The notes under the pieces: generated by a model
What the model saw: the letters and a program-made list of their open reading frames with translations, nothing else
Database searches by the model: none
What the model was told of the DNA's origin: nothing
Translations under genes and position numbers: made by a program
NCBI RefSeq assembly: GCF_044324785.1
Contig: NZ_CP172127.1
Length of the DNA: 64,000 nucleotides
Source: Escherichia coli
GTDB taxonomy: Bacteria > Pseudomonadota > Gammaproteobacteria > Enterobacterales > Enterobacteriaceae
Strand: one strand, 5' to 3'
Part shown: positions 1,399 through 61,115 of the stretch, in pieces
Numbering within the stretch: position 1 is the first letter of the stretch
How the letters are laid out: every line of letters begins with the position of its first letter

Positions 1399-1717
1399 GG
1401 CGGATGAGTCCTTATTGCTGCGATTTCAGACAGTTTGCCAGCGATAAGCCAGACAAAACTCATCCCTGAGCGGTAAGTCCACAGGATGAGAAGCAAGGGT
1501 GAGCGATCGCGCGCAAAAAACGGCTGAATTTTGCGATAAACCCCACATTTTCTGCGATTTAGCGTCAATCTGAATCGTTAACTCGTGACATAGTTTCAGA
1601 TTTGGACTATTCCTTGGGGTGCTCTTGACAGCTATTTTTGATATGATTTGAGATTCAACTCTCAAATTTGTGAAAAATATAAGGTGTTGGAATGATTAAA
1701 TCCGACCAGGAGACCTG

Positions 1718-2542: not shown

Positions 2543-2556
2543 TTACATTTCCTCGA

Positions 2557-2590
2557 GCCTTATCCGACTTGTCGGTCGGATAAGGCTTTT
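2557..2590 (+). terminator. rho-independent terminator downstream of bax
   Basis: Perfect 12-bp inverted repeat gccttatccgac / gtcggataaggc with 6-nt loop followed by TTTT. Confidence 0.7.
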
Positions 2591-2649
2591 GCTCGCATCA
2601 GGTGGTTGTGCTGAGTTACCTGATGCGACGCCGACAATTCTCATCATCG

Positions 2650-3828: not shown

Positions 3829-3905
3829 GGTTCTTTTCCTGCTGAATCATGCAAAAACTCAACACCGGTAATACGTTACCGGCTTTGAGAAAATTTTTAT
3901 CAAAA

Positions 3906-5087: not shown

Positions 5088-6606
5088 GATGTTCGCTCCT
5101 CAATGCGGCTTCCATCACCTGCTCCTGAGTCAGGTTATGATTTATCAGGTTGGCTTTTAGTTTCCCTTCATGCATCACCAGTACACGATCGCTAAGGCCG
5201 AGCACTTCAGGTAATTCGGAAGAGATGACAATAACGGCAATACCCTGCTGGACGAGTTGGTTAATTAATTTGTAGATCTCGTATTTCGCGCCAATATCGA
5301 TACCCCTGGTAGGTTCATCAAGAATGAGAATGCGCGGGTTGAGTAACAGACAGCGAGCGAGGATCGCTTTTTGCTGATTGCCGCCGCTCAAACGTCCAAT
5401 AGCAAGGTTGGGGGACGACGTTTTAACTTTGAGTTGCTGGATTGATTCCAGAATACATTTTTGCTCTGCCGCGTCATCAAGCTGGCTAATACCGCCGGTA
5501 AATTTATTGAGTGCGGCGAGGGTAATATTTTTACCAACCGCCATTACCGGAACGATGCCGTCGCGCTTTCTGTCTTCGGGTACCATCGCAATCCCCTGGG
5601 CGATGGCTTGCTGACAGTTACGAATATCTACCTGTTTGCCATCAATATAAATTTTCCCTTCCCATTGTCCGGGCCACACGCCAAACAGGCACTGAATGGT
5701 CTCGGTACGTCCGGCACCAACGAGTCCGGCAATACCCAGTATTTCGCCACGTTTCAGGGAAAACGAGACATCATTAACTCGTTTAATATGACGATTAACC
5801 GGATGCCATGCCGTCAGATGTTCAATACGTAATATTTCATCTCCGGTGGTATGTGGTTCATTTGGGTAAAGTGCGGTTAACTCTCGCCCGACCATCATGG
5901 TGATAATATCGTCTTCACTCATTCCGGCAGCATCACGCGTACCAATGTGCTGACCGTCACGAATAACGCAAATCGTATCGGAAATCGCTTTGACTTCGTT
6001 GAGTTTATGCGAAATATAAATACAGGCGATACCGTGCTGTTGTAGATCGCGAATAATATCCAGTAAAACCGACGTTTCCTGCTCAGTTAATGAGGCTGTC
6101 GGCTCATCGAGAATTAACAAACGCACCTGTTTATTAAGTGCCTTGGCAATTTCAACCAGTTGTTGTTGCCCAAGCCCTAAATCGCCAACGCGGGTATCTG
6201 GTGAAATAGATAAACTGACCTGTGCGAGCAGCTTCTGACAGCGTAGCGTCATCAGATCATAATCCATAATGCCATTATGGGTTATTTCGTTACCCAGGAA
6301 GATATTTTCCAGCACGGTCAATTCTTTCACCAGCGCCAATTCCTGGTGAATGATAGCGATACCTTTGCGTTCGGTATCGCGGATGTGACTCGCCTGAATC
6401 TCTTCTCCCGCAAAAATAATTTCGCCTTCGTAGGAGCCATGGGGATAAATACCACACAGCACTTTCATCAGCGTTGATTTACCAGACCCATTTTCCCCAC
6501 AGAGTGAGACGATTTCGCCAGCATTCAACCGCAAGCTGACGTTATCAATCGCCTTCACACTGCCGAAGGTTTTGGTAATGTTCTTCATTTCAAGTAGATA
6601 AGGCAT
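5065..6606 (-). CDS. xylG: xylose ABC transporter ATP-binding protein XylG (two ABC domains)
   Basis: 513-aa ORF with two Walker A motifs ([18 protein letters not shown]); 23-nt overlap with xylH start. Confidence 0.95.
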
Positions 6607-6682
6607 AACGACTCCACCTAAGCCAATTCATTCACGCGGCATGGAGAGAAATCACGCCCCGCTCCTCGCCGGGGCGTAACGC

Positions 6683-7675
6683 TTACAGCTCGCTCTCTTT
6701 GTGGAATCCGTCTTTAACTACCGTATCTTTGATGTTGTTTTTATTCACATCGATCGGTGTCAGCAGGCGGGAGGGAACATCTTTCAGACCATTATTCAGT
6801 GTGGTATCTGCTTTTGGTTCCTGACCATTGCCCAACTCAACGGCAATTTCTGCGGCAGTATTTGCCAGCAATGTAATAGGTTTATACACCGTCATAGTTT
6901 GCGTACCGGCAGCAATACGTTTAATACCTGCGAGATCCGCATCCTGGCCGGAAATTGCTACTTTCCCTGATAAACCTTGCGCACTTAATGCCTGAATTGC
7001 CCCACCTGCGGTGGCATCGTTTGAGGCAACTACAGCATCAATTTTGTTGTTATTGGCGGTTAGCGCGTTTTCCATAATTTTTAATGCGTTTTCCGGTAAC
7101 CAGCCATCAACCCATTGGTCACCAACGACTTTAATTTTTCCGGAATCAACGTAAGGTTTTAACACTTTCATTTGCCCGGCGCGGAACAGCTTGGCGTTGT
7201 TATCTACCGGCGAGCCGCCCATCAGGAAGTAATTACCTTGCGGAACAATATCGACCAGGGCTTTTGCCTGCAGTTCACCGACTTTTTCGTTATCGAAAGA
7301 AATGTAAAAATCGATATCCGCATCGTTAATCATACGGTCGTAAGCTAATACTTTAATACCTTCTTGTTTGGCTTCTTTTACAACGTTACTTAATACCTGA
7401 CCGTTATACGGAATAATGACAAGAACATCGACACCCCGGTTAATCATGTTTTCAATCTGCGACATTTGTGTTTCTTCATTGCCATTTGCAGACTGTACAA
7501 ATACTTTCGCGCCGAGAGATTCTGCCTTTTTCACAAAAATATCTCGATCTTTTTGCCAGCGTTCAAGACGGAGATCATCAATCGCCATACCTATTTTGAC
7601 TTCTTTGGCGTGTGCAGCAACGTTGGTAAGCAGAAGTGAGGTGCAAAGGGTGAGTAGAATGTTCTTTATTTTCAT
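6683..7675 (-). CDS. xylF: D-xylose-binding periplasmic protein XylF
   Basis: Six-frame ORF is 356 aa; internal start MKIKNILLTLCTSLLLTNVAAHA (signal peptide) gives the expected 330 aa. Confidence 0.9.
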   Translation of the reverse strand: MKIKNILLTLCTSLLLTNVAAHAKEVKIGMAIDDLRLERWQKDRDIFVKKAESLGAKVFVQSANGNEETQMSQIENMINRGVDVLVIIPYNGQVLSNVVKEAKQEGIKVLAYDRMINDADIDFYISFDNEKVGELQAKALVDIVPQGNYFLMGGSPVDNNAKLFRAGQMKVLKPYVDSGKIKVVGDQWVDGWLPENALKIMENALTANNNKIDAVVASNDATAGGAIQALSAQGLSGKVAISGQDADLAGIKRIAAGTQTMTVYKPITLLANTAAEIAVELGNGQEPKADTTLNNGLKDVPSRLLTPIDVNKNNIKDTVVKDGFHKESEL

Positions 7676-8040
7676 GGTGTAGGGCCTTCTGTAGTTAGAG
7701 GACAGCTTTAATAAGTAACAATCACCGCGATAAACGTAACCAATTTTTAGCAACTAAACAGGGGAAAACAATTACAGATTTTTATCTTTCGATTACGATT
7801 TTTGGTTTATTTCTTGATTTATGACAGAGATCTTACTTTTGTTGCGCAATTGTACTTATTGCATTTTTCTCTTCGAGGAATTACCCAGTTTCATCATTCC
7901 ATTTTATTTTGCGAGCGAGCGCACACTTGTGAATTATCTCAATAGCAGTGTGAAATAACATAATTGAGCAACTGAAAGGGAGTGCCCAATATTACGACAT
8001 CATCCATCACCCGCGGCATTACCTGATTATGGAGTTCAAT
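7676..8040. promoter_or_regulatory. divergent xylF / xylA promoter region (XylR- and CRP-controlled); CRP-like half-site TGTGA at 7928-7932
   Basis: Intergenic AT-rich region between divergent xylF and xylA; individual operator positions not resolved, only the TGTGA motif was read. Confidence 0.5.
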
Positions 8041-9363
8041 ATGCAAGCCTATTTTGACCAGCTCGATCGCGTTCGTTATGAAGGCTCAAAATCCTCTAAC
8101 CCGTTAGCATTCCATCACTATAATCCCGACGAACTGGTGTTGGGCAAGCGTATGGAAGAGCACTTGCGTTTTGCCGCCTGCTACTGGCACACCTTCTGCT
8201 GGAACGGGGCGGACATGTTTGGTGTGGGGGCGTTTAATCGTCCGTGGCAGCAGCCTGGTGAGGCATTGGCGTTGGCGAAGCGTAAAGCAGATGTCGCATT
8301 TGAGTTTTTCCACAAGTTACATGTGCCATTTTATTGCTTCCACGATGTGGATGTTTCCCCTGAGGGCGCGTCGTTAAAAGAGTACATCAATAATTTTGCG
8401 CAAATGGTTGATGTCCTGGCAGGCAAGCAAGAAGAGAGCGGCGTGAAGCTGCTGTGGGGAACCGCTAACTGCTTTACAAACCCTCGCTACGGTGCGGGTG
8501 CTGCGACGAACCCAGATCCAGAAGTCTTTAGTTGGGCGGCAACTCAAGTTGTTACAGCGATGGAAGCAACCCATAAATTGGGCGGTGAAAACTATGTCCT
8601 GTGGGGCGGTCGTGAAGGTTACGAAACGTTGTTAAATACCGACTTGCGTCAGGAGCGTGAACAGCTGGGCCGCTTTATGCAAATGGTGGTTGAGCATAAA
8701 CATAAAATCGGCTTCCAGGGTACGTTGCTTATCGAACCGAAACCGCAAGAACCGACCAAACATCAATATGATTACGATGCTGCGACAGTCTATGGCTTCC
8801 TGAAACAGTTTGGTCTGGAAAAAGAGATTAAACTGAACATTGAAGCTAACCACGCGACGCTGGCAGGTCACTCTTTCCATCATGAAATAGCCACCGCCAT
8901 TGCGCTTGGCCTGTTCGGTTCTGTCGACGCTAACCGTGGCGATGCACAACTGGGCTGGGACACCGACCAGTTCCCGAACAGTGTGGAAGAGAATGCGCTG
9001 GTGATGTATGAAATTCTCAAAGCAGGCGGTTTCACCACCGGCGGTCTGAACTTCGATGCCAAAGTACGTCGTCAAAGTACTGATAAATATGATCTGTTTT
9101 ACGGTCATATCGGCGCGATGGATACGATGGCGTTGGCGCTGAAAATTGCAGCACGCATGATTGAAGATGGCGAGCTGGATAAACGCATCGCGCAGCGTTA
9201 TTCCGGCTGGAATAGCGAATTAGGCCAGCAAATCCTGAAAGGCCAAATGTCACTGGCAGATTTAGCCAAATATGCTCAGGAACACAATTTGTCTCCGGTG
9301 CATCAGAGTGGTCGCCAGGAGCAACTGGAAAATCTGGTAAACCATTATCTGTTCGACAAATAA
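8041..9363 (+). CDS. xylA: xylose isomerase
   Basis: ORF begins [12 protein letters not shown]...; start placed at second ATG (8041) to give the expected 440 aa [15 protein letters not shown]... Confidence 0.95.
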
Positions 9364-9434
9364 CGGCTAACTGTGCAGTCCGTTGGCCCGGTTATCGGTA
9401 GCGATACCGGGCATTTTTTTAAGGAACGATCGAT

Positions 9435-10889
9435 ATGTATATCGGGATAGATCTTGGCACCTCGGGCGTAAAAGTTATTTTGCTCAACGAGCAGGGCGAG
9501 GTGGTTGCTTCGCAAACGGAAAAGCTGACCGTTTCGCGCCCGCATCCACTCTGGTCGGAACAAGACCCGGAACAGTGGTGGCAGGCAACTGATCGCGCAA
9601 TGAAAGCCCTGGGCGATCAGCATTCTCTGCAGGACGTAAAAGCATTGGGTATTGCCGGCCAGATGCACGGTGCAACCTTACTGGATGCCCAGCAACGGTT
9701 ATTACGCCCTGCCATTTTGTGGAACGACGGGCGCTGTGCGCAAGAGTGCACTTTGCTGGAAGCGCGAGTTCCGCAATCACGGGTGATTACCGGTAACCTG
9801 ATGATGCCCGGATTTACTGCGCCTAAATTGCTATGGGTTCAGCGGCATGAGCCGGAGATATTCCGTCAAATCGACAAAGTATTATTACCGAAAGATTACT
9901 TGCGTCTGCGTATGACGGGGGAGTTTGCCAGCGATATGTCTGACGCAGCTGGCACCATGTGGCTGGATGTCGCAAAGCGTGACTGGAGTGACGACATGCT
10001 GCAGGCTTGCCACTTATCTCGTGACCAGATGCCTACATTATACGAAGGCAGCGAAATTACTGGTGCTTTGCTACCTGAAGTTGCGAAAGCGTGGGGTATG
10101 GCGGCGGTGCCAGTTGTCGCAGGCGGTGGTGATAATGCAGCTGGTGCGGTTGGTGTAGGAATGGTTGATGCTAATCAGGCAATGTTATCGCTGGGGACGT
10201 CGGGGGTCTATTTTGCTGTCAGCGAAGGGTTCTTAAGCAAGCCAGAAAGCGCCGTACACAGCTTTTGCCATGCGCTACCGCAGCGTTGGCATTTAATGTC
10301 TGTAATGCTGAGTGCAGCGTCGTGTCTGGATTGGGCTGCGAAATTAACGGGCCTGAACAATGTCCCAGCTTTAATCGCGGCTGCTCAACAGGCTGATGAA
10401 AGTGCCGAGCCAGTTTGGTTTCTGCCTTATCTTTCCGGCGAGCGTACACCACACAATAATCCCCAGGCGAAGGGGGTTTTCTTTGGTTTGACTCATCAAC
10501 ATGGCCCCAATGAACTGGCGCGAGCAGTGCTGGAAGGCGTGGGTTATGCGCTGGCAGATGGCATGGATGTCGTGCATGCCTGCGGCATTAAACCGCAAAG
10601 TGTTACGTTGATTGGTGGCGGGGCGCGTAGTGAGTACTGGCGTCAGATGCTGGCGGATATCAGCGGTCAGCAACTCGATTACCGCACGGGGGGGGATGTG
10701 GGGCCAGCACTGGGCGCAGCAAGGCTGGCGCAGATTGCGGCGAATCCAGAGAAATCGCTCATTGAGTTGTTGCCACAACTGCCGTTAGAACAGTCGCATC
10801 TACCAGATGCGCAGCGTTATGCCGCTTATCAGCCACGACGTGAAACGTTCCGTCGCCTCTATCAGCAACTTCTGCCATTAATGGCGTAA
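9435..10889 (+). CDS. xylB: xylulokinase
   Basis: 484-aa ORF MYIGIDLGTSGVKVILLNEQG..., FGGY sugar kinase N-terminus; follows xylA. Confidence 0.95.
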   Translation: MYIGIDLGTSGVKVILLNEQGEVVASQTEKLTVSRPHPLWSEQDPEQWWQATDRAMKALGDQHSLQDVKALGIAGQMHGATLLDAQQRLLRPAILWNDGRCAQECTLLEARVPQSRVITGNLMMPGFTAPKLLWVQRHEPEIFRQIDKVLLPKDYLRLRMTGEFASDMSDAAGTMWLDVAKRDWSDDMLQACHLSRDQMPTLYEGSEITGALLPEVAKAWGMAAVPVVAGGGDNAAGAVGVGMVDANQAMLSLGTSGVYFAVSEGFLSKPESAVHSFCHALPQRWHLMSVMLSAASCLDWAAKLTGLNNVPALIAAAQQADESAEPVWFLPYLSGERTPHNNPQAKGVFFGLTHQHGPNELARAVLEGVGYALADGMDVVHACGIKPQSVTLIGGGARSEYWRQMLADISGQQLDYRTGGDVGPALGAARLAQIAANPEKSLIELLPQLPLEQSHLPDAQRYAAYQPRRETFRRLYQQLLPLMA

Positions 10890-11058
10890 ACGTTATCCCC
10901 TGCCTGACCGGGTGGGGGGATAATTCACATCTATATATATCAGTAATTAATTAATATTTAGTATGAATTTATTCTGAAAATCATTTGTTAATGGCATTTT
11001 TCAGTTTTGTCTTTCGTTGGTTACTCGTAATGTATCGCTGGTAGATATGGAGATCGTT

Positions 11059-11400
11059 ATGAAAACCTCAAAGACTGTGGCAAAAATATTATTTGTTGTC
11101 GGGGCGCTGGTTTATCTGCTTGGGCTATGGATCTCATGCCCATTGTTAAGTGGAAAAGGCTATTTTCTTGGCGTGTTAATGACGGCAACTTTTGGCAACT
11201 ATGCATATCTTCGCGCAGAAAAACTCGGGCAACTGGATGATTTTTTTACCCACATCTGCCAGTTAGTTGCGTTAATCACTATCGGTCTCTTGTTTATCGG
11301 TGTTTTAAACGCACCTATCAATGCTTATGAAATGGTGATCTACCCTATCGCCTTTTTTGTCTGCTTGTTTGGTCAAATGCGTTTGTTTCGCCCGGCATGA
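11059..11400 (+). CDS. yiaB: inner membrane protein YiaB
   Basis: 113 aa from MKTSKTVAKILFVVGALVYLLGL...; hydrophobic; position next to xylB. Confidence 0.8.
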   Translation: MKTSKTVAKILFVVGALVYLLGLWISCPLLSGKGYFLGVLMTATFGNYAYLRAEKLGQLDDFFTHICQLVALITIGLLFIGVLNAPINAYEMVIYPIAFFVCLFGQMRLFRPA

Positions 11401-11445
11401 GCAACATAAAGCTCTTACACATTCAGGAATGAAAGGAATACTGTG

Positions 11446-11883
11446 ATGGACAACAAAATATCAACCTATTCTCCGGCATTCAGTATTGTGTCATGGATAG
11501 CTCTCGTTGGTGGTATCGTTACCTATCTGTTAGGGCTATGGAATGCAGAGATGCAGTTAAATGAAAAAGGATATTATTTTGCCGTACTGGTATTAGGACT
11601 GTTTTCTGCTGCGTCTTATCAAAAGACCGTTCGGGATAAGTATGAAGGCATACCGACCACTTCCATTTATTATATGACCTGCCTGACTGTCTTTATTATC
11701 TCTGTTGCATTACTGATGGTAGGTCTGTGGAATGCGACATTATTACTCAGCGAGAAAGGTTTTTATGGACTAGCTTTCTTCTTAAGCTTGTTTGGTGCAG
11801 TAGCGGTGCAGAAGAATATTCGTGATGCCGGAATAAACCCACCAAAAGAAACACAGGTTACCCAGGAAGAATACAGCGAATAA
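11446..11883 (+). CDS. yiaA: inner membrane protein YiaA
   Basis: 145 aa from [12 protein letters not shown]...; paralogous to YiaB (shared LLGLWNA motifs); position. Confidence 0.8.
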
Positions 11884-11892
11884 TTCACATAA

Positions 11893-11926
11893 GCCCGGTC
11901 AGTCCAATGTGACCGGGCTTTTATTT
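11893..11926. terminator. hairpin terminator between convergent yiaA and wecH
   Basis: gcccggtc / gaccgggc inverted repeat followed by TTTTATTT; overlaps wecH stop codon. Confidence 0.6.
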
Positions 11927-12920
11927 AACTCACTAGTCTGTTTCTGTCGATTCGTTGTACCAGCATAGAAAGTAACAAACTCGCTGCCAACGTCGCGCAA
12001 AAGATCCAAATAATATCGAGTATTGGCCAGTTTTTAAGCTCAATCCCCCGGGTGCGCAGTGCATGGATAATAAAGGCGTGGAATCCGTATATACCCAACG
12101 AATGGCGGGAGATTAAGCCAAGTCCGCGAACAGTACGCGTATCCAGCGTGTTTTTAACCAGAGTCAATAGCGTGATTGCGCAGATAAAAACCATCGGCCC
12201 ACAGTAAAGATACCAGGTATCGGCAAAATTTCCGCGCCACTGCAATTCATATAATGTCCCGCGAGAGATAATAAAAACCCCCGTCGCAAACAGTGCGGCG
12301 CACACCCACGACAGTGCTTTATGCTGTGTGTCCATCATCCCTATAGCGCGGCCCAACATGCCATACAGGATGTAGTAAAAAGTATCGCCATTGATATATA
12401 AGTTAATTGGCAGCCATTCAAAACCGTCAATTTTCTGCGGCAATGTGTTTGGGTTAGCGATAATACCAATCACCACCATTAGCACCAGCAACATTTTTCC
12501 GCCGACGTTCTTCACCTGAATCAGCGGTGAAACCAGATAAATCACCGCAATCGCGAAGAAAAACCACAAGTGGTAAAACACTGGCTTTTGCAGCAGGTTT
12601 TTCAGCGCTAACTCCATATTGATGGAGGTAAACAGCGCAATGTAGAGCAGTGCGATTGCGCTATAAAAAAGCAGACATAAGCCGATACGCAAGAAATGGC
12701 GCGGCTGGGCGCTGCGTTCGCCAAAAAAGAGATAGCCGGAAATCATGAAAAATAGCGGCACGCTGACACGAGAGGCAGAATTCAGAACATTGGCGATATC
12801 CCATGTGACGGGGCTAACACTATGAGCATTGGTCACATACCAGGTAGTGGTGTGAATCATCACCACCATTAAACACGCTATCCCTCGCAGGTTATCAATC
12901 CAGTAAATTTTGGGCTGCAT
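11925..12920 (-). CDS. wecH: O-acetyltransferase WecH (acyltransferase-3 family)
   Basis: 331-aa polytopic membrane [23 protein letters not shown]... Confidence 0.9.
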
Positions 12921-13094
12921 CTGTGTCTCTGTATCTGGTTAAAAAAAGTCTGACCGATAAATCATTCAGTTGGCGCACTGGAATAATCTGAGTTTTAACA
13001 CTACAGCTTATAGAGGCTTAAGGAAATTCGTAAGATATCAGCCACTATACCGATATAAATAATAAGACTCACCTGCAAACCAGACGGTAATTTA

Positions 13095-13403
13095 ATGATG
13101 ATGAACTCTTTCTTTCCGGCAATGGCGCTTATGGTGCTTATGGCGCTAGTGGGTTGTTCTACACCGCCACCCGTGCAGAAAGCACAACGGGTAAAGGTTG
13201 ATCCTCTGCGTTCGTTGAATATGGAAGCGTTATGCAAGGATCAGGCGGCAAAACGTTATAACACCGGCGAGCAAAAAATCGACGTCACTGCTTTTGAACA
13301 ATTTCAGGGAAGCTATGAAATGCGCGGTTATACCTTCCGTAAAGAGCAGTTTGTCTGTTCTTTTGACGCAGATGGCCATTTTTTGCATCTTTCCATGCGT
13401 TAA
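13095..13403 (+). CDS. ysaB: lipoprotein YsaB
   Basis: About 100-aa ORF with signal peptide and lipobox (LVGCS); exact start among three consecutive ATG codons uncertain. Confidence 0.8.
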   Translation: MMMNSFFPAMALMVLMALVGCSTPPPVQKAQRVKVDPLRSLNMEALCKDQAAKRYNTGEQKIDVTAFEQFQGSYEMRGYTFRKEQFVCSFDADGHFLHLSMR

Positions 13404-13497
13404 GCCCTGCTTTTTCCCGTTTCGTACTGTATATCTTCCATCCAGCGGGTATACTGATCCCTTCCTTTAAATCCACACGTATCCAGCACGAAATAAT

Positions 13498-14409
13498 ATG
13501 CAAAAGTTTGATACCAGGACCTTCCAGGGCTTGATCCTGACCTTACAGGATTACTGGGCTCGCCAGGGCTGCACCATTGTTCAACCATTGGACATGGAAG
13601 TCGGCGCGGGAACCTCTCACCCAATGACCTGTCTGCGCGCGCTGGGGCCAGAACCGATGGCGGCTGCTTATGTTCAGCCTTCTCGTCGCCCGACCGATGG
13701 TCGCTACGGCGAAAACCCCAACCGTTTACAGCACTACTATCAGTTCCAGGTGGTCATTAAGCCATCGCCGGACAATATTCAGGAGCTGTACCTCGGTTCT
13801 CTGAAAGAGCTGGGCATGGACCCGACCATCCACGACATCCGTTTCGTGGAAGATAACTGGGAAAACCCGACGCTGGGTGCCTGGGGGCTGGGCTGGGAAG
13901 TGTGGCTGAACGGCATGGAAGTGACGCAGTTCACTTACTTCCAGCAGGTCGGTGGTCTGGAGTGTAAACCGGTTACCGGCGAGATCACCTACGGTCTGGA
14001 ACGTCTGGCAATGTACATTCAGGGCGTAGACAGCGTTTACGACCTGGTCTGGAGCGACGGCCCGCTGGGTAAAACCACCTATGGCGACGTGTTCCATCAG
14101 AACGAAGTGGAGCAGTCCACTTACAACTTCGAATACGCGGATGTGGACTTCCTGTTCACCTGCTTCGAGCAGTACGAGAAAGAAGCGCAGCAGCTGCTGG
14201 CGCTGGAAAATCCGCTGCCGTTGCCAGCCTACGAGCGTATTCTGAAAGCCGCCCACAGCTTCAACCTGCTGGATGCGCGTAAAGCCATCTCCGTCACTGA
14301 GCGTCAGCGCTATATTCTGCGCATTCGCACCCTGACCAAAGCAGTGGCAGAAGCATACTACGCTTCCCGTGAAGCCCTCGGCTTCCCGATGTGCAACAAA
14401 GATAAGTAA
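13498..14409 (+). CDS. glyQ: glycine--tRNA ligase alpha subunit
   Basis: 303-aa [28 protein letters not shown]... Confidence 0.97.
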
Positions 14410-14418
14410 GAGGCGGCT

Positions 14419-16488
14419 ATGTCTGAGAAAACTTTTCTGGTGGAAATCGGCACTGAAGAGCTGCCACCAAAAGCACTGCGCAGCCTGGCTGAGTCCTTTG
14501 CTGCGAACTTTACTGCGGAGCTGGATAACGCTGGCCTCGCACACGGCACCGTTCAATGGTTTGCTGCTCCGCGTCGTCTGGCGCTGAAAGTAGCTAACCT
14601 GGCGGAAGCGCAACCGGATCGTGAAATCGAAAAACGCGGCCCGGCGATTGCTCAGGCGTTCGACGCTGAAGGTAAACCGAGCAAAGCGGCAGAAGGTTGG
14701 GCGCGTGGTTGCGGTATTACCGTTGACCAGGCTGAGCGTCTGACTACCGATAAAGGCGAATGGCTGCTGTATCGCGCCCACGTGAAGGGCGAAAGCACCG
14801 AAGCTCTGCTGCCGAATATGGTTGCGACTTCGCTGGCGAAACTGCCGATCCCGAAACTGATGCGTTGGGGTGCAAGCGACGTGCACTTCGTGCGTCCGGT
14901 GCACACCGTGACTCTGTTGCTGGGCGACAAAGTTATTCCGGCTACCATTCTGGGCATTCAGTCCGATCGCGTAATTCGCGGCCACCGCTTTATGGGCGAG
15001 CCGGAATTCACTATCGACAATGCCGATCAGTATCCGGAAATTCTGCGTGAGCGCGGGAAAGTCATCGCCGATTACGAAGAACGTAAGGCGAAGATTAAAG
15101 CCGATGCCGAAGAAGCGGCGCGTAAGATTGGCGGTAACGCTGACTTAAGCGAAAGCCTGCTGGAAGAAGTGGCTTCGCTGGTGGAGTGGCCGGTCGTTCT
15201 GACCGCGAAATTTGAAGAGAAATTCCTCGCTGTGCCGTCTGAAGCGCTGGTTTACACCATGAAAGGTGACCAGAAGTACTTCCCGGTGTACGCGAACGAC
15301 GGCAAACTGCTGCCGAACTTTATCTTCGTTGCCAACATCGAATCGAAAGATCCGCAGCAAATTATCTCTGGTAACGAGAAAGTCGTTCGTCCACGTCTGG
15401 CGGATGCCGAGTTCTTCTTCAACACTGACCGTAAAAAACGTCTGGAAGATAATCTGCCGCGTCTGCAAACCGTGCTGTTCCAGCAACAGCTTGGCACACT
15501 GCGTGACAAAACTGACCGCATCCAGGCACTGGCTGGCTGGATTGCTGAACAGATTGGCGCTGACGTTAACCACGCAACCCGTGCGGGCCTGCTGTCCAAG
15601 TGCGATCTGATGACCAACATGGTCTTCGAGTTCACCGACACCCAGGGCGTTATGGGGATGCACTACGCGCGTCACGATGGCGAAGCGGAAGATGTTGCCG
15701 TGGCGCTGAACGAGCAGTATCAGCCGCGCTTTGCCGGTGATGACCTGCCGTCTAATCCGGTAGCCTGTGCGCTGGCGATTGCTGACAAGATGGACACCCT
15801 GGCGGGTATCTTCGGTATCGGTCAGCATCCGAAAGGCGACAAAGACCCGTTTGCGTTGCGTCGTGCCGCACTTGGCGTGCTGCGTATTATCGTTGAGAAG
15901 AACCTCAACCTTGATCTGCAAACGCTGACCGAAGAAGCGGTGCGTCTGTATGGCGATAAGCTGACTAATGCCAACGTGGTTGATGATGTTATCGACTTTA
16001 TGCTCGGTCGCTTCCGCGCCTGGTATCAGGACGAAGGTTACACCGTTGACACCATCCAGGCGGTACTGGCGCGTCGTCCGACTCGTCCGGCTGATTTCGA
16101 TGCCCGAATGAAAGCGGTATCGCACTTCCGTACCCTGGATGCAGCTGCAGCACTGGCGGCGGCGAACAAGCGTGTATCTAACATTCTGGCGAAGTCTGAC
16201 GAAGTGCTGAGCGATCGCGTGAATGCTTCTACTCTGAAAGAGCCGGAAGAAATTAAACTGGCGATGCAGGTTGTGGTGCTGCGCGACAAGCTGGAGCCGT
16301 ACTTCGCTGAAGGTCGTTACCAGGATGCGCTGGTCGAACTGGCTGAATTGCGTGAACCGGTTGATGCCTTCTTCGATAAAGTGATGGTCATGGTTGATGA
16401 CAAAGAATTGCGAATCAACCGTCTTACCATGCTGGAGAAACTGCGCGAACTGTTCCTGCGCGTTGCGGATATTTCGCTGTTACAGTAA
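14419..16488 (+). CDS. glyS: glycine--tRNA ligase beta subunit
   Basis: 689-aa [23 protein letters not shown]...; 9 bp after glyQ stop. Confidence 0.97.
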
Positions 16489-16962: not shown

Positions 16963-17117
16963 GAGTGTTTGGCGGGAAGTTATTCCCGCCTTTCTTACGG
17001 CGTTGCGCATTCTCATTGCACCCAAATTTATTTCTTTAATGAATGTTTTTTTAGATACGAATGGATTTGGCTATTAAATAAGTTTTTAATCGGGAACAGG
17101 AATGGTTCGGAGCCTTC

Positions 17118-17489
17118 ATGAATAAACTGCTTTTACTGTTGATAATGCTCTATCAACGACATCTTTCTCCTCGCAAAGGATACCGCTGTGCTTACAGTGT
17201 GTTGTACCAAACGCAGGGATGTTCGGGAGCAGTCAAAGAGATTATTCAACAGAAAGGTGTTATTGCAGGCTGGGGCGAGATACGTCAGCGTTTTGCAGAT
17301 TGCCGACTTGCGGCACTGACAATCAGGCAGAAGCAACACCTGAACGAGGTAATACGTAAAAAGAAGAATAATAATTGTGATTGTTCCGGGTGCGATGGTG
17401 CGGTCTGTCGTGATTGCGACATTCCGGTGCCGGATCTGGATTGTTCCTGGGACTGTTCTTCTCTACATATAAAGCGGTTTTTCCAATAA
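17118..17489 (+). CDS. hypothetical Cys-rich protein; N-terminus loosely resembles the YidD/DUF37 signature, C-terminus has CxC/CxxC clusters
   Basis: 123-aa ORF; GGAG 6 nt upstream of ATG; motif LYQRHLSPRKGYRC resembles the YidD YQRxISP...CR pattern; identity not confirmed. Confidence 0.45.
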   Translation: MNKLLLLLIMLYQRHLSPRKGYRCAYSVLYQTQGCSGAVKEIIQQKGVIAGWGEIRQRFADCRLAALTIRQKQHLNEVIRKKKNNNCDCSGCDGAVCRDCDIPVPDLDCSWDCSSLHIKRFFQ

Positions 17490-37665: not shown

Positions 37666-37715
37666 ACAACTCAAGAATAGCCGCGAAACGTTGTCATTAC
37701 AACTCAGGCGGCTAT

Positions 37716-37823
37716 ATGACGCTCGCAGAACTGGGCATGGCCTTCTGGCATGATTTAGCGGCTCCGGTCATTGCTGGCATTCTTGCCAGCATGATCGTGA
37801 ACTGGCTGAATAAGCGGAAGTAA
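37716..37823 (+). CDS. ldrD: Ldr-family type I toxin peptide (35 aa), copy 1
   Basis: MTLAELGMAFWHDLAAPVIAGILASMIVNWLNKRK. Confidence 0.85.
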   Translation: MTLAELGMAFWHDLAAPVIAGILASMIVNWLNKRK

Positions 37824-37876
37824 CGTGTCAGACGGGCGTCAGGCTGCCGTAATGGCAAGTTGCGCCCGGATCAGAC

Positions 37877-37908
37877 CGCAGGGATAAAACTCTGCGGCCT
37901 TTTTCGTA
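37877..37908 (+). terminator. terminator of ldr copy 1
   Basis: ccgcag...ctgcgg hairpin followed by CCTTTTTCGT. Confidence 0.65.
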
Positions 37909-38079
37909 AGAAAAATGCAACGGTTGCAAGCGGATAATATTCTGCGGAATGCGCAGCACAGAGTGAAGACGTGACGGATTCCGGAACAGAAAAACAGTCG
38001 TAGAATCAGCGGCAAGCCGGAAAGGTTCCGGTGAGGCGCAATGTTGCGGGGGCTTAATCCCTGGTGGCATTGGTTGCTG

Positions 38080-38148
38080 GAGAGAGAAAACCCCCGCACG
38101 TTGCAGGTATGCACCTGACAACACCACGGGGGCCATTCTTGCATCCAA
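38080..38148 (-). ncRNA. putative Rdl antisense RNA, copy 2 (approximate bounds)
   Basis: Same structure as copy 1, shifted by 483 nt. Confidence 0.35.
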
Positions 38149-38198
38149 ACAATACAAGAATAGCCGCGAAACGTTGTCATTACAACAGAGGCGGCTAT

Positions 38199-38306
38199 AT
38201 GACGCTCGCAGAACTGGGCATGGCCTTCTGGCATGATTTAGCGGCTCCGGTCATTGCTGGCATTCTTGCCAGTCTGATCGTGAACTGGCTGAACACGCGG
38301 AAGTAA
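38199..38306 (+). CDS. Ldr-family type I toxin peptide (35 aa), copy 2 (variant C-terminus)
   Basis: MTLAELGMAFWHDLAAPVIAGILASLIVNWLNTRK; differs from copy 1 at two residues. Confidence 0.85.
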   Translation: MTLAELGMAFWHDLAAPVIAGILASLIVNWLNTRK

Positions 38307-56343: not shown

Positions 56344-57840
56344 ATGCAGGGCACAAAAATTCGACTTTTAGCGGGCGGTTTGCTGATGATGGCCACTGCT
56401 GGCTATGTGCAGGCAGATGCGCTCCAGCCTGATCCAGCATGGCAACAGGGGACGCTTTCCAACGGTTTACAGTGGCAAGTGCTGACCACGCCCCAGCGTC
56501 CCAGCGATCGTGTTGAAATTCGCCTGCTGGTTAATACCGGTTCGCTCGCCGAAAGTACACAACAGAGCGGTTACAGCCACGCCATCCCTCGTATTGCGTT
56601 AACGCAAAGCGGTGGCCTTGAAGCAGCACAGGCGCGTTCATTGTGGCAGCAGGGGATCGACCCTAAACGCCCGATGCCGCCGGTAATTGTCTCTTATGAC
56701 ACCACGCTGTTTAATCTGAGTTTGCCCAATAACCGTAACGACTTGCTGAAAGAAGCGCTCTCTTATCTGGCAAATGCCACTGGCAAACTGACTATCACGC
56801 CAGAAACCATCAACCACGCGCTGCAAAGTCAGGACATGGTGGCAACCTGGCCTGCCGATACTAAAGAGGGCTGGTGGCGCTATCGTCTGAAAGGATCAAC
56901 CTTGTTAGGTCACGATCCTGCCGATCCGCTGAAACAACCCGTTGAAGCGGAAAAGATTAAAGATTTCTATCAGAAATGGTACACCCCGGATGCAATGACG
57001 CTGCTGGTGGTGGGAAACGTGGATGCGCGCTCGGTCGTCGACCAAATCAACAAAACGTTTGGCGAACTGAAAGGCAAACGTGAAACACCGGCTCCGGTGC
57101 CGACGCTTTCTCCGCTGCGTGCGGAAGCGGTGAGTATTATGACTGACGCGGTGCGTCAGGACCGGTTATCAATCATGTGGGATACGCCGTGGCAGCCGAT
57201 TCGTGAATCAGCCGCACTGCTGCGCTACTGGCGTGCGGACCTGGCCCGTGAGGCGCTGTTCTGGCATGTTCAGCAAGCGTTAAGCGCCAGTAACAGCAAA
57301 GATATCGGTCTTGGATTTGACTGTCGTGTGCTGTATCTGCGTGCGCAGTGTGCCATTAACATCGAATCACCAAACGACAAGCTGAACAGCAACCTTAATC
57401 TGGTGGCGCGTGAACTGGCGAAGGTTCGCGATAAAGGTCTGCCGGAAGAAGAGTTCAATGCGTTAGTGGCGCAAAAGAAACTGGAGCTGCAGAAACTGTT
57501 TGCCGCCTATGCGCGAGCTGATACCGATATTCTGATGGGTCAGCGGATGCGTTCGTTGCAAAATCAGGTCGTTGATATCGCGCCGGAGCAATATCAGAAA
57601 CTGCGCCAGGACTTCCTTAACAGCCTGACGGTGGAGATGTTAAATCAGGATCTGCGTCAGCAGTTGTCGAACGATATGGCGTTAATACTGCTGCAGCCGA
57701 AAGGCGAGCCGGAATTTAACATGAAAGCGTTGCAGGCGGCCTGGGATCAAATCATGACCCCATCTACTGCCGCTGCGACCACCTCTGTCGCCACGGATGA
57801 CGTTCATCCTGAAGTGACGGATATTCCACCCGCACAGTAA
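56344..57840 (+). CDS. yhjJ: M16-family peptidase-like protein YhjJ
   Basis: 498-aa ORF with signal peptide MQGTKIRLLAGGLLMMATAGYVQA. Confidence 0.9.
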   Translation: MQGTKIRLLAGGLLMMATAGYVQADALQPDPAWQQGTLSNGLQWQVLTTPQRPSDRVEIRLLVNTGSLAESTQQSGYSHAIPRIALTQSGGLEAAQARSLWQQGIDPKRPMPPVIVSYDTTLFNLSLPNNRNDLLKEALSYLANATGKLTITPETINHALQSQDMVATWPADTKEGWWRYRLKGSTLLGHDPADPLKQPVEAEKIKDFYQKWYTPDAMTLLVVGNVDARSVVDQINKTFGELKGKRETPAPVPTLSPLRAEAVSIMTDAVRQDRLSIMWDTPWQPIRESAALLRYWRADLAREALFWHVQQALSASNSKDIGLGFDCRVLYLRAQCAINIESPNDKLNSNLNLVARELAKVRDKGLPEEEFNALVAQKKLELQKLFAAYARADTDILMGQRMRSLQNQVVDIAPEQYQKLRQDFLNSLTVEMLNQDLRQQLSNDMALILLQPKGEPEFNMKALQAAWDQIMTPSTAAATTSVATDDVHPEVTDIPPAQ

Positions 57841-58043
57841 TAAATAACCCGGTAGCGTTTCTTCTGCGCTGCCGGGATTAACGGTAATAAATTAGTTACC
57901 GTGATATAACCGCAGATATTTTTCCGGGCACGGCGGTAGCGCGCAGATAACCATTCATTATTAAAATAAACTTACCGTAGAGTGGGTTTAATTATTTATT
58001 AGCTGAATAAATTATACCGGTGCCTCCTGGAAGGAGTGAGTTT

Positions 58044-58469
58044 ATGCTTGTGTTAAAATCACAATCGATTGGATTCAGGATTTCCACAACTTATTTATCT
58101 TTAACATATACAGAGTCTGATGGCGTCAACATTAAAGTAGATGCTCTGGAGTTAATATCAAAAGAGAAAGATTATGTTCAAATTGAACTGGTCTTCACTA
58201 CAGTTGCTGAAGTTAAGTGTGCTACCGTCAATTTTTATGAAGCCAACTATAACAATATTGTTATTAAGAAGGTTGATGGTGAAAATCTGGACTCCGGTAT
58301 ATATCAAGTAATGAATTCTGTACCGCTTGAAGAAAAAGAGAAATTATATGACCCTAAAAAACGGTTGAAGTTAAAACATTATATTATAGCAGGTTATGAT
58401 AGTTATGTTGAGATTTTAGCTACTGGTTTTAGCTGTATACGATGCCAGGCAATAGATGGTGTTAAATAA
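58044..58469 (+). CDS. hypothetical protein (island ORF A, 141 aa)
   Basis: ATG at 58044 with GGAAGGAG 6 nt upstream; six-frame ORF starts 24 nt earlier at GTG inside the RBS; no recognised family. Confidence 0.6.
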   Translation: MLVLKSQSIGFRISTTYLSLTYTESDGVNIKVDALELISKEKDYVQIELVFTTVAEVKCATVNFYEANYNNIVIKKVDGENLDSGIYQVMNSVPLEEKEKLYDPKKRLKLKHYIIAGYDSYVEILATGFSCIRCQAIDGVK

Positions 58470-58723
58470 TGGCCTATCATATAGAAATATTGAAAATTGA
58501 AGAAACTGATAAAGTAGTAAAATATGAATTTGGACCTACATCTTCTGACTATTGTAGATCTGATTACGGCGAGTTCGTGATAGATAAAAGAACGGGTGAG
58601 ATGACATTAGTCAGAATGGTTAAAAACGATTCGGCTAATAAATTTTATTTGCGAGCGAGTTTTAAGATTCTGACCTGTTGGCGAAAGGGCTATTTGCCAA
58701 AAAATGGGGAATGGGCTTCTTAA
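58469..58723 (+). CDS. hypothetical protein (island ORF B, 84 aa)
   Basis: ATG overlaps the ORF A stop (TAATG), indicating translational coupling; no recognised family. Confidence 0.55.
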   Translation: MAYHIEILKIEETDKVVKYEFGPTSSDYCRSDYGEFVIDKRTGEMTLVRMVKNDSANKFYLRASFKILTCWRKGYLPKNGEWAS

Positions 58724-58772
58724 TAAGTAACTTTGCAGAATAAGTGAATTTTCCCATTTTTGGGGGCAGTCG

Positions 58773-59039
58773 TTGATTCTTACACAGTTTATGTTATGGG
58801 TGCAGAAAAATACTGGGCATAATATTAGATGCAATACCAATACATTATCAACTAGCATAGTTATTGATTTTGATAATGATATCTATATTGCCAGGTTTAC
58901 AGTTTGGGATGATTTAAGTTGTATGTCAGAAGTTATATGCGTTGAAACGGGGGATTATAAATTAAATCAGCGAAATGAATTCCATACTTATGATTCGCTA
59001 AGGAAGATTTTTGATAATTTCATGGGAATTATACAATAA
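58773..59039 (+). CDS. hypothetical protein (island ORF C, 82-88 aa)
   Basis: ORF opens at TTG 58773; first ATG at 58791; no clear RBS; may be degraded. Confidence 0.4.
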   Translation: MILTQFMLWVQKNTGHNIRCNTNTLSTSIVIDFDNDIYIARFTVWDDLSCMSEVICVETGDYKLNQRNEFHTYDSLRKIFDNFMGIIQ

Positions 59040-59064
59040 ATTGCGCTAATAAAATAAAAACATT

Positions 59065-59556
59065 ATGTTTAAATTGATAGCAATCAAAGAAACTCCTTTG
59101 GGAGTAAAAGATGACGAAGATCTCTCGGTATCAGAAGCCATATACTCAACCTATACTGATTATACAAACGATATCCTTATGGTGTTTGATAAAGTCGTTT
59201 TATGTTTAGATAGAAAAGGAGATATTAGCGATATCTATAATGATATCGTCAATATATTTGAGCAGATAGAACTGGGTACTAAACAGTTTTTTATGTGTTT
59301 TTTATCCAGTACATTCACTACACGTTGGGAATTTGAGCATAAAAGCCCAGATACTATCAATATAACCGCTTATTGGTTTGACGTAAGATATCTTTATGGT
59401 ATCAACTCGATTATTAAAACTTCCACAATTGAAATCCCAGTATCTGAATTTAAAATGCAATGGGGAAATATTATAAAACCAATAAAAAAAGATATTCTTT
59501 CGTTAGGTTATGATGAAACGTTAGTAAATTTTTCTTTTTTTAACAATTTTAATTGA
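59065..59556 (+). CDS. hypothetical protein (island ORF D, 163 aa)
   Basis: ATG at 59065, weak or absent RBS; acidic, no recognised motifs. Confidence 0.45.
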   Translation: MFKLIAIKETPLGVKDDEDLSVSEAIYSTYTDYTNDILMVFDKVVLCLDRKGDISDIYNDIVNIFEQIELGTKQFFMCFLSSTFTTRWEFEHKSPDTINITAYWFDVRYLYGINSIIKTSTIEIPVSEFKMQWGNIIKPIKKDILSLGYDETLVNFSFFNNFN

Positions 59557-59629
59557 TGAGTTATTAGTCTGGTTTATCTAAAAATGTAGGTGGTTTTTTT
59601 GCGACATCAACGGATTTAAAGGAGTATAA

Positions 59630-60214
59630 ATGCGTAACAAAAAACGCATACTATTCTTGCTAACAGTCATTCTTTGCTTAACCGGTCTTTATTCCTGCAA
59701 CAAAATTTTTCTCTTACTCTGGGATGCCAATAATATTTATGTCAGTACAAAAAATAATATCGATAAAGACAAGGTAAAAATAGAATTCGGTATCAGCGTC
59801 AACACGATCAACCGAGAAACGGATGCCGAATTATTTGCTGACAGAGATAAGTATGCAGTGCTCTTCGATGGTAGCCTGAAAAATAAGATGATAAACGAAT
59901 ACGGAGAAAATGATTTTTTAATTACCTACGATAACCGCTGCTATTTATCATTTCGTCAATTTAAAACCAATCGTCGTCATCAACATGACTATTATTTTGA
60001 CTTCTTTAACAACAATGGGAATGTCTTCGTCACGGTCGAAATTAAAGGTGAGAACCCGCTTAAATTTACGCGTAGTTTGAATGATATGCGTCAGCAGTTT
60101 ATTTCAAATCATCAGCACCGCTCGGTTCGTCCCTGCAAGATGATTAACGGAGAACGAATATCTACCCGTTCTCCGTCAAAAACCATTATTCCGGCATCGC
60201 CTCACGCGGGATAA
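59630..60214 (+). CDS. hypothetical exported or lipoprotein-like protein (island ORF E, 194 aa), C-terminus possibly truncated or chimeric
   Basis: AAGGAG 7 nt upstream; N-terminus MRNKKRILFLLTVILCLTGLYSC resembles a signal/lipoprotein peptide; 3' end runs into GC-normal DNA and overlaps the kdgK 3' end by 29 nt. Confidence 0.55.
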   Translation: MRNKKRILFLLTVILCLTGLYSCNKIFLLLWDANNIYVSTKNNIDKDKVKIEFGISVNTINRETDAELFADRDKYAVLFDGSLKNKMINEYGENDFLITYDNRCYLSFRQFKTNRRHQHDYYFDFFNNNGNVFVTVEIKGENPLKFTRSLNDMRQQFISNHQHRSVRPCKMINGERISTRSPSKTIIPASPHAG

Positions 60215-61115
60215 TCGCGCCGCGATACTGAATAACGGTACTTGCGGTCAGGTGCCCGCGTTTCGCCGCGTTTTCCGCACTGCCGCCCGTCAAACGTACC
60301 GCCAGATAACCGGCACTGAAAGAGTCGCCAGCTGCGGTGGTATCGATCACTTTTTCTTTCGGCAGTTTCACCGCCGGAACATCCACTAACCCTTCGCCAG
60401 CAATGGACACCAGGCAAGAATCCGCCCCGCGTTTCACCACCACTTCTTTCACGCCCGCGTTATGGGTGCGCGCAATGACGTCTTCCACCGGCTGTTGACC
60501 CCACAGCGCGTCTTCGTCGTCCAGCGTCAGGAAGGCGATATCCGTGCATTCCAGCATTTGCTGGTACACCTGCTGTGTCTCTTCTTTGCTGGCCCACAGG
60601 CGCGGACGATAGTTATTGTCGAAAATCACTTTTCCGCCGTTGGCGCGGCATTCGCGCAGCAGAGAAAGCAGCTTTTCGCGGCTGGTCGGGCTTAAGATCG
60701 CCAGGCTAATCCCGCTCAGGTAGAGATAATCGAAATTCGCCAGCTCTTCGCAAATCGCCGCAGATTGCTCGCTCTCCAGCCAGAATTTGGCGGCGGCTTC
60801 GTTACGCCAGTAGTAGAACGTACGTTCGCCGGTGCTGTCGGTTTCAATGTAGTAAAGGCCCGGCAGACGGTTTTCCATCCGTTGGGTCAGGGAAGTATCA
60901 ACGTTCTCGCCGTGCCAGGCGTCCAGCATTTGCTGGCTAAAACTGTCCGTTCCCAGCGCCGTTACGTAATGAACGGTTAATGCCGCAGGATCGACCTGAC
61001 GGGCGATATAGACGGAAGTGTTCAGGGTATCGCCGCCGAAACCGCGCTTAACGTCCGCGCCTTTCTCGGAAAGCTCAATCATGCATTCGCCAATCACGGC
61101 AATCTTTTTGGACAT
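60186..61115 (-). CDS. kdgK: 2-dehydro-3-deoxygluconokinase
   Basis: 309 aa from MSKKIAVIGECMIELSEKG...; pfkB-family kinase; six-frame ORF is N-terminally extended without support. Confidence 0.93.
   Translation of the reverse strand: MSKKIAVIGECMIELSEKGADVKRGFGGDTLNTSVYIARQVDPAALTVHYVTALGTDSFSQQMLDAWHGENVDTSLTQRMENRLPGLYYIETDSTGERTFYYWRNEAAAKFWLESEQSAAICEELANFDYLYLSGISLAILSPTSREKLLSLLRECRANGGKVIFDNNYRPRLWASKEETQQVYQQMLECTDIAFLTLDDEDALWGQQPVEDVIARTHNAGVKEVVVKRGADSCLVSIAGEGLVDVPAVKLPKEKVIDTTAAGDSFSAGYLAVRLTGGSAENAAKRGHLTASTVIQYRGAIIPREAMPE

Follow-up and report, generated by a model that had tools for sequence, protein, structure and literature searches.

The TreTu-TriTu pair of Salmonella Typhimurium (PDB 7ZHL/7ZHM) is one of the closest described counterparts of the locus reported here. 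TreTu, the C-terminal toxin domain of Rhs-main from a T6SS (type VI secretion system), that of Salmonella pathogenicity island 6 (SPI-6), ADP-ribosylates Asp21 of EF-Tu; the TriTu gene is located directly downstream of it, and the two proteins form a 1:1 complex in which the TriTu beta-sheet docks onto TreTu and acts as a lid over its NAD+ pocket (PMC9825190). Here we describe an island found in a 64-kb stretch of the Escherichia coli contig NZ_CP172127.1 (the whole of this stretch is called the window below). It is located between the core genes yhjJ and kdgK and carries five open reading frames (ORFs), O1 to O5, one of which (O3) codes for a TriTu-family protein. The island is probably a horizontally acquired array of orphan Rhs/YD immunity genes, containing neither toxin nor recombinase, that would protect its host against the toxins of competitors.

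Immunity genes unaccompanied by their toxins have been described in several other settings. The acquired interbacterial defence (AID) clusters of gut Bacteroidales, among them the recombinase-associated ones (rAID), bring together orphan immunity genes of different families in consolidated arrays that are co-directional and low in G+C. The genes of these arrays have diverged from the cognate immunity genes and were acquired horizontally, and gene content varies by strain. Polyimmunity loci, reportedly defined by Zhang et al. in 2012 (Biology Direct) in a comparative genomics study of polymorphic toxin systems and said to have been delineated from curated Imm/SUKH families, consist of tandem immunity genes of several unrelated families with no adjacent toxins and a patchy spread across phyla. 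In the T6SS auxiliary clusters of Vibrio cholerae, strings of immunity genes are kept without their effectors following module replacement, and are thought to protect against non-kin strains (PMC5361080). In the orphan toxin/immunity arrays that follow rhs-main in Rhs systems, each module with its rhsI-like gene keeps a toxin fragment with a PxxxxDPxGL core end (PMC3967940, PMC3150448).

The identity of O3 was established by homology. It matches the Pfam family PF24689, 'Immunity protein TriTu' (hmmscan i-Evalue 8.1e-18, model positions 25-89 of 91), and its residues 2-79 align with residues 7-84 of the crystallised Salmonella TriTu (PDB 7ZHM chain C) at 64% identity (phmmer E 5.4e-29); as a full-length homologue, O3 is expected to share the fold and the neutralisation mode of TriTu. 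To find relatives in other genera, contigs were scanned with an O3/TriTu alignment. Six of the seven TriTu loci of other genera (Gilliamella, Snodgrassella, Photorhabdus) have a TreTu domain directly upstream, which is either intact or frameshifted, and in one locus (L019) the end of an Rhs core is fused to the TreTu domain preceding the TriTu relative. Unlike these and the Salmonella pair, O3 stands alone, in an intergenic site of the core genome and not in a T6SS island: a tblastn search of the window with two TreTu queries returned nothing at E<=10, the DPxGL core-end motif is absent from all of its frames, and it contains no rhs gene and no T6SS genes. Since there is no TreTu upstream of it, the O3 gene is an orphan copy, which leaves its family membership unaffected. 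TreTu-like DNA was also absent from 5426 complete E. coli genomes when these were searched by blastn with a Photorhabdus treTu probe, a DNA search insensitive to divergent toxins. None of the named TreTu clusters has E. coli as its source; the named TreTu-bearing proteins come from Salmonella, Yersinia, Proteus, Enterobacter, Kosakonia, Pectobacterium, Photorhabdus, Gilliamella, Paenibacillus and others.

TreTu-like domains were also observed in Gram-positive bacteria, on a Listeria seeligeri plasmid (NZ_MZ151536.1, 10738-10962; H121) and in Paenibacillus (P0203, P0205 and P0210). One of them sits on a gene annotated as a type VII secretion system LXG polymorphic toxin, and the delivery of this toxin domain thus involves more than one secretion system.

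An earlier reading of the sequence (the original prediction) had found no assignable motif in any of the five proteins. This does not hold for O3, whereas O1, O2 and O4 indeed match no curated family: neither alone nor as whole families did they yield a match in PADLOC, NCBIfam, PHROGs, Pfam or PDB sequences, in a Pfam scan that covered every member of the three alignments and a PDB search of these families by profile. An exhaustive HMMER search recovered ~50 representatives of the O1 family, 17 of the O2 family and ~60 of the O4 family, each with clear conserved motifs; the alignment of the O2 family holds 18 members, and that of the O4 family 26 out of the ~60 representatives. Structure models were confident for O1 (predicted local distance difference test, pLDDT, 91) and O4 (94.5, AlphaFold2). 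The fold family of O4 is wholly uncharacterised and scattered across five phyla. Two further leads in these searches were rejected: a fusion of an O1 domain with a B4-like domain in P0053 was not supported by blastp, and 'Serglycin' matches in Pfam were spurious, caused by Gly-Ser linkers in concatenated queries; otherwise Pfam returned TriTu and, in one island variant (D, see below), DUF6708.

The homologues of these three proteins elsewhere are positioned behind Rhs or YD toxins. The O2 homologue P0085 (42% identical) begins 7 nt past a 154-aa orphan Rhs C-terminal module that starts with 'LNPYGYVHNPAKWVDPYGL' and is closely preceded, in frame, by 'DPIGLLGG'; a full-length Rhs gene stands at the head of this array. 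Another, P0140, overlaps the stop codon of a second Rhs C-terminal toxin and is followed by an Imm33-like gene. The toxin domains preceding P0085 and P0140 are 57-65% identical, and the pairing is seen in loci L025-L028 and L037-L039. For O4 (loci L030/L031 and L040), the homologues P0028 and P0032 are located 45 nt and 12 nt past Rhs C-terminal toxins that are mutually 72% identical, and P0023 comes after an Rhs C-terminal toxin and a homologue of B4, a gene of island variant B. For O1 (loci L032/L033), the homologue P0027 lies 20 nt past a YD-shell ORF ending in a core-end motif and a ~135-aa toxin domain, in a Bacillus-type array surrounded by SUKH, YezG-like, AHH, Imm11 and SUKH_5 genes. 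A DNA-pattern scan of metagenomes added 28 O1-family loci confirmed by hidden Markov model, 22 of them from outside E. coli; in seven of these 22, the O1-linked toxin domain family (56-89% identity to two probe domains) ends ~20-25 nt upstream of the homologue, and in two a SUKH gene is found directly downstream. The Rhs core-end motif alone was positive in 2 of the 28 loci, an undercount due to short contigs, compared to seven with the toxin-domain probe.

The toxin-to-homologue gap in the O1, O2 and O4 families is thus 0-45 nt, the canonical position of an immunity gene, and the genes neighbouring the toxin-linked homologues of O1, O2, O4 and B4 include SUKH, Imm11, YezG-like, Imm33-like, AHH and Ntox34. 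The four toxin domains paired with these families are absent from Pfam, NCBIfam and PDB. Copies of the O1-paired domain are located in L055 (194-613) and in L032 (upstream of 8001), of the O2-paired domain in L026 (7530-7994) and L038 (1-567), and of the O4-paired domain in L031 (1-468) and L040 (1-606). In E. coli, the toxin-linked modules of L028 and L030 found no match by megablast, a method insensitive to divergent toxins. As each of the three families stands beside one toxin family across divergent loci, the arrangement bears the signature of cognate toxin-immunity pairs. O1 to O4 represent four different families of small, predicted cytoplasmic proteins whose members elsewhere are found directly downstream of one toxin C-terminal domain each, and the conserved gene position points to an immunity role for O1, O2 and O4.

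One of the O2-linked loci contains a tandem repeat. In L025/L026 (CP133647.1, GCA_030016185.2, ~1185-16255), a ~6.65-kb unit is repeated in at least three tandem copies downstream of the full-length Rhs gene, in the order SymE-like toxin, helix-turn-helix (HTH) regulator, 904-aa primase/Toprim protein, tyrosine integrase, orphan Rhs C-terminal toxin and O2-like immunity gene. It has the appearance of an element that encodes an integrase and a primase and brings spare Rhs toxin tips with it.

The borders of the island were determined by blastn against an empty-site locus (L035). The yhjJ-kdgK interval holds 2351 bp at 57842-60192 in place of a 101-bp segment of the K-12 type: homology to the empty site ends at 57841, just past the yhjJ stop codon, and restarts at 60193, within the last kdgK codons, which are unlike those of the K-12 type because the replacement extends to 60192. 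At the empty site, the spacer measures 95 bp from stop to stop and holds two hairpins. Computed composition bore out the A+T-richness that had been estimated by eye, with a G+C content of 0.287-0.377 inside the block (300-nt windows, 57900-60149) compared to 0.45-0.59 in the flanks, and of 0.30-0.38 in the single ORFs. The five same-strand ORFs between yhjJ (ending at 57840) and kdgK (ending at 60186) were recovered where they had been placed; in 2000 shuffles of the block, no strand ever carried five ORFs of 80 aa or longer (shuffle mean 0.19), and all five have homologues elsewhere. The block between yhjJ and kdgK contains no integrase or transposase, in agreement with the predicted lack of mobility genes, and no target-site duplication was seen at the junctions. 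The description of the products as small acidic proteins fits three of them (isoelectric points 5.5, 4.8 and 4.5), whereas O2 (8.6) and O5 (9.5) are basic. The O2 start overlaps the O1 stop by 1 nt, by which the two genes appear to be translationally coupled, and the ribosome-binding sites preceding O1 and O5 are strong. The intergenic sequences of the island are dissimilar, and a terminator scan of it gave nothing informative.

The distribution of the island was examined in the 5426 complete E. coli genomes, in 5422 of which the flanks were found. The flanks span 2551 bp in nearly all sampled rows vs 4801 bp in the window; the site is empty in ~96% of the genomes, and any piece of the island is present in only 200. 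The insert is thus rare and foreign and absent from the K-12-type site, as had been proposed. At least five variants of the island occupy the site, differing from each other by whole-gene cassettes, and O5 is present in each; the site between these two convergent core genes is probably a recombination hotspot. The literature searched contained no mention of an island locus at yhjJ-kdgK.

Variant A, the arrangement of the window, is found in one complete genome, that of strain N3 (L001; 99.7% identical, eight differences), and on two metagenome contigs, L057 (human gut) and L060. The triTu gene is intact in the window, while the N3 copy is cut to 57 aa by a 1-nt deletion in a GGGGG run (window position 58949). 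In the PGAP annotation of N3 the truncated gene is still called TriTu family, and wecH and yhjG are marked as frameshifted as well. Variant B, present in ~170 genomes, contains O1, O2 and O5 at 96-99% identity, all intact, with B3 (155 aa) and B4 (100 aa) standing where variant A has O3 and O4. Homology between A and B is limited to 57842-58803 and 59598-60192, and the DNA of the triTu-O4 cassette was found in a single one of the 5426 complete genomes, even at blastn sensitivity. The breakpoints between variants are intergenic, save in variant B, where a 13-nt stub from the start of triTu (ATGTTATGGGTGC) remains; variant B therefore descends from a triTu-bearing ancestor. B4 (L002, 16484-16786) has a 50%-identical homologue directly behind an Rhs C-terminal toxin beginning 'MILYRGMSTDEYSQL' (L024, 1-755), and probably represents a further undescribed immunity family. 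Immediately ahead of the cassette breakpoint, variant B also keeps a 15-nt inverted repeat that in the window extends from the end of O2 into the O2-O3 spacer (58697-58711 / 58750-58764; CCAAAAAATGGGGAA / TTTCCCATTTTTGGG), and which could be a transcript-end or processing structure.

In variant C (~29 genomes, 45% G+C; L003 TUM13936, L004 KFu014, L005 FDAARGOS_944) an O5-like gene is the sole island ORF retained. Convergent with it, on the opposite strand and between the equivalents of 60100 and 60143, are placed the genes of a TPR protein (680 aa) and a DUF3142 protein (401 aa), each with a signal-peptide-like start. Variant D comes from draft assemblies of E. coli/Shigella. Its O1 allele (71% identity) is followed by an unrelated 91-aa gene, a DUF6708 gene, a 170-aa gene, and alleles of O4 (80%) and O5 (82%); between the cassettes lie H-repeat (DDE_Tnp_1_assoc) fragments and an IS630-like HTH fragment. 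In L011 (13020-14000), the DUF6708 gene amid these H-repeat and IS630-like fragments codes for a 326-aa membrane protein. Variant E, from the metagenome contig L042 (OASX01002541.1), combines O1, O2, TriTu, B3, B4 and O5; its TriTu is intact, and its B3 (4164-4626) matches in two pieces in different frames and is probably frameshifted. PADLOC, NCBIfam and PHROGs scans gave nothing significant for B3, B4 and the variant D proteins.

The anchor of all occupied alleles is O5, which is not demonstrably a member of the immunity set. The O5 and kdgK genes overlap at their 3' ends by 29 nt. The homologues of O5, a family of exported proteins, form 12 clusters, some of them fused to other domains, and in every E. 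coli variant O5 diverges from the wider family past ~residue 157 and does not have the conserved C-terminal ~35 residues; in the variant A protein this tail is encoded by the junction with the end of kdgK, and homology to variant C stops at 60100. A single-sequence search gave no PDB match for O5. In P0014 (408 aa) the O5 domain is preceded by a fused membrane domain of the DUF4184/Zn-dependent phospholipase C-like type, and in P0012 and P0015-P0018 (296-351 aa) it bears long C-terminal extensions; these sequences look Bacteroidota-type.

To assess selection, alleles of the island variants were compared. The ratio of nonsynonymous to synonymous substitution rates (dN/dS) between variants A and D was 0.24 for O1 and 0.26 for O4; for O5, across the A, C and D alleles, it was 0.12-0.19, the lowest among the island genes compared. 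Values of 0.12-0.26 indicate purifying selection. The dS of the island alleles (0.33-0.86) is several-fold above that of yhjJ in the same genome pairs (0.02-0.17), and so the cassettes either predate their E. coli backgrounds or arrived independently. The H-repeat fragments in variant D suggest that the island may descend from the tail of an Rhs element.

When compared to the described systems, the island shares with AID and rAID clusters each of the traits listed above, as well as a host that lives in the gut. Its five co-directional genes at 0.30-0.38 G+C also agree with the rAID-1 pattern of at least two co-directional downstream genes at G+C <=41%. It differs from that pattern in containing no XerD-like tyrosine recombinase ORF between yhjJ and kdgK, where Pfam gives TriTu only, and no repetitive integron-like intergenic sequences: cassette boundaries showed no integron-like repeats, just short two- or three-copy AT-rich matches not placed at gene borders. 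Unlike AID-1 and AID-2, it is not carried by an integrative and conjugative element, being a clean spacer replacement, and variants A and B are free of mobility genes. Moreover, the host is E. coli, the immunity genes number four vs up to 31, and the families are of the Rhs/YD type, three of them undescribed. The Vibrio arrays, which likewise hold immunity genes kept without effectors and remodelled by module replacement, are located directly downstream of a resident effector and arise via effector displacement, whereas the island is unlinked to a secretion system or effector.

The Rhs orphan arrays resemble the island in gene type, in that homologues of O1, O2 and O4 occur in such arrays elsewhere, and in the H-repeat fragments of variant D, which are typical of E. 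coli Rhs elements. However, no rhs C-terminal fragment precedes the immunity genes of the island, and no full-length rhs gene lies upstream in the window; with no toxin fragment there, toxin cannot be regenerated by recombination, and immunity alone remains. As for polyimmunity loci, the island likewise consists of tandem co-directional genes of different immunity families (O3 curated; O1, O2 and O4 by gene position), has no cognate toxin gene at the locus, and is patchily spread across phyla in its families; the difference is that three of its four families, and their cognate toxin domains, match no Pfam model. Because the recombinase and repeats of rAID clusters and the toxin fragments of Rhs orphan arrays are missing, we file the island under the general orphan-immunity class, of which (polyimmunity, orphan-immunity or AID-like loci) it is a new example.

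A bolder version, which we consider doubtful, is that yhjJ-kdgK may be a recombinase-free proteobacterial counterpart of the Bacteroidales rAID. It would then act as an 'immunity dock' of the core genome, where E. coli lineages swap whole immunity cassettes by homologous recombination via the conserved flanks, directed against the toxins of other genera (for example Salmonella TreTu). Undescribed protein families would on this view account for three of the four shields as well as for the Rhs toxin domains cognate to them.

Positions of the island, its genes and its flanks in the window
Feature	Position	Strand	Remarks
Whole island	57842..60192	+	Replaces 101-bp K-12-type segment; G+C 0.29-0.38
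Leader of normal G+C, common to occupied variants A-D	57842..57950	+	Identity 93.6% to C, 98.8% to B, ~80% to D
O1, 141 aa; putatively from an undescribed immunity family whose partner is one Rhs/YD C-terminal toxin family	58044..58469	+	
O2, 84 aa; putative member of an undescribed immunity family (79-85 aa, C-terminus W-A-S)	58469..58723	+	
O3, 82 aa from ATG (88 aa from TTG at 58773); orphan TriTu-family immunity protein	58791..59039	+	Pfam and PDB homology
Swappable cassette (triTu past its first 13 nt, and O4)	58804..59597	+	Sets variant A apart from B (B3 and B4 here)
O4, 163 aa; putatively from an undescribed, widely scattered immunity family whose partner is another Rhs C-terminal toxin family	59065..59556	+	
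O5, 194 aa; predicted exported protein (signal-anchor or lipoprotein-like)	59630..60214	+	N-terminus MRNKKRILFLLTVILCLTGLYSC
Tail common to all occupied alleles	60143..60188	.	Holds 13-bp inverted repeat 60144-60156 / 60167-60179
yhjJ, M16 metallopeptidase, left core flank	56344..57840	+	
kdgK, 2-dehydro-3-deoxygluconokinase, right core flank	60186..61115	-	

The rest of the window is ordinary core genome, from malS to bcs. It includes the type I toxin genes hokA and ldr (two copies), at ~17100-17300 and 37700-38300, positioned by correspondence with L036, which are ordinary E. coli features unrelated to the island.

We propose that the island would act in the following manner. A competitor would inject a matching toxin, for Rhs toxins typically via a T6SS; the resident immunity protein would bind this toxin 1:1 and block its active site, and the E. 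coli cell would survive without making any toxin of its own. The template for O3 is the TriTu lid, which, placed over the TreTu NAD+ pocket, stops ADP-ribosylation of EF-Tu at Asp21. The set of immunity genes is remodelled through whole-gene cassette exchange, such as variants A, B, D and E display. Neutralisation by binding has been demonstrated experimentally for the TriTu family; it is expected for O3 by homology, and gene position suggests it for O1, O2 and O4. We infer that the copies present in the island are expressed, bind present-day toxins and protect the cell.

Several observations weigh against this proposal. The identity of O3 to Salmonella TriTu is just 64%, and cross-protection is therefore not guaranteed; the absence of a toxin in this genome covers 64 kb only. 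In 13 of the 22 non-E. coli O1 loci no identified toxin lies upstream, several of these having little or no upstream sequence, and the Firmicute O1 homologues are solo, in genome contexts that hold no toxin. A sigma-70 consensus scan of the island gave fewer promoter-like sites than its shuffles. When O5 was considered as an immunity gene, the one usable context of a homologue (L034) contained no toxin. Finally, there are signs of decay, namely the stub of triTu that remains in variant B, the frameshifted triTu of N3 and the O5 C-terminus read from the junction.

These signs bear on the alternative that survives best, although we hold it to be unlikely: that the island is a non-functional leftover of an Rhs element tail, from which the toxin fragments were deleted and in which the remaining ORFs hitchhike and decay. 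The original prediction had allowed for such a decaying remnant, a caveat that applies in part, and to the three signs just listed may be added the H-repeat and IS630-like fragments between the variant D cassettes, the split B3 of L042, and the promoter scan, which gave nothing convincing. Nevertheless, none of the five ORFs is disrupted in the window, nor are O1, O2 and O5 in ~170 genomes; O1 and O5 have strong ribosome-binding sites; and dN/dS values of 0.12-0.26, with dS up to 0.86, denote purifying selection over the long term. Moreover, the loss of all toxin fragments with four immunity genes left intact is the outcome expected from selection for immunity alone.

A second alternative, to which we give little credence, is that the locus is a cell-envelope module centred on the exported O5, the small genes being incidental passengers. 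O5 alone recurs in every variant, and its dN/dS is the lowest; in variant C it stands together with the genes of two exported proteins (TPR and DUF3142), and the locus adjoins the bcs cellulose genes and cyclic di-GMP genes. On the other hand, O5 lacks the conserved C-terminal residues in every E. coli variant, and such a module would leave the toxin-linked O1-O4 families and the cassette turnover unexplained; it is compatible with an orphan immunity array and offers no alternative for O1-O4.

Anti-phage defence islands are often foreign, AT-rich islands of small genes at variable sites. An anti-phage defence, abortive-infection or toxin-antitoxin module, for example with the coupled O1 and O2 as a toxin-antitoxin pair, is nevertheless the least probable of the explanations considered, for although the island is foreign and AT-rich, has small genes, occupies a variable site between core genes and shows the 1-nt O1/O2 overlap, its five proteins match no PADLOC (PADLOC-DB v2) model at E<=1 and have no significant PHROG or NCBIfam match, no toxin partner was found, O3 belongs to a characterised interbacterial immunity family, the homologues of both O1 and O2 take the place of immunity genes downstream of secreted Rhs toxin domains, and, since an unrelated gene comes after O1 in variant D, O1 and O2 do not form an obligate pair. 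The original prediction had held that the sequence does not discriminate between defence, toxin-antitoxin and orphan immunity genes; the searches support the prediction in part and favour the last of these for O1-O4, in view of the TriTu identity of O3 and of the Rhs/YD toxin domains that precede the homologues of O1, O2 and O4.

Taken together, these results offer candidates for three new immunity families. To each of them belongs a candidate cognate Rhs toxin domain that is absent from Pfam, which makes for directly clonable pairs. They also suggest that a toxin-less immunity array can persist, and be remodelled, at an ordinary intergenic site with no recombinase or mobile element. If the proposal is correct, some commensal and pathogenic E. 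coli would hold ready-made resistance to contact-dependent toxins made by others, one of the resisted toxin types being that used by the T6SS of Salmonella Typhimurium in gut colonisation, and the island would have a bearing on gut colonisation resistance and on strain replacement.

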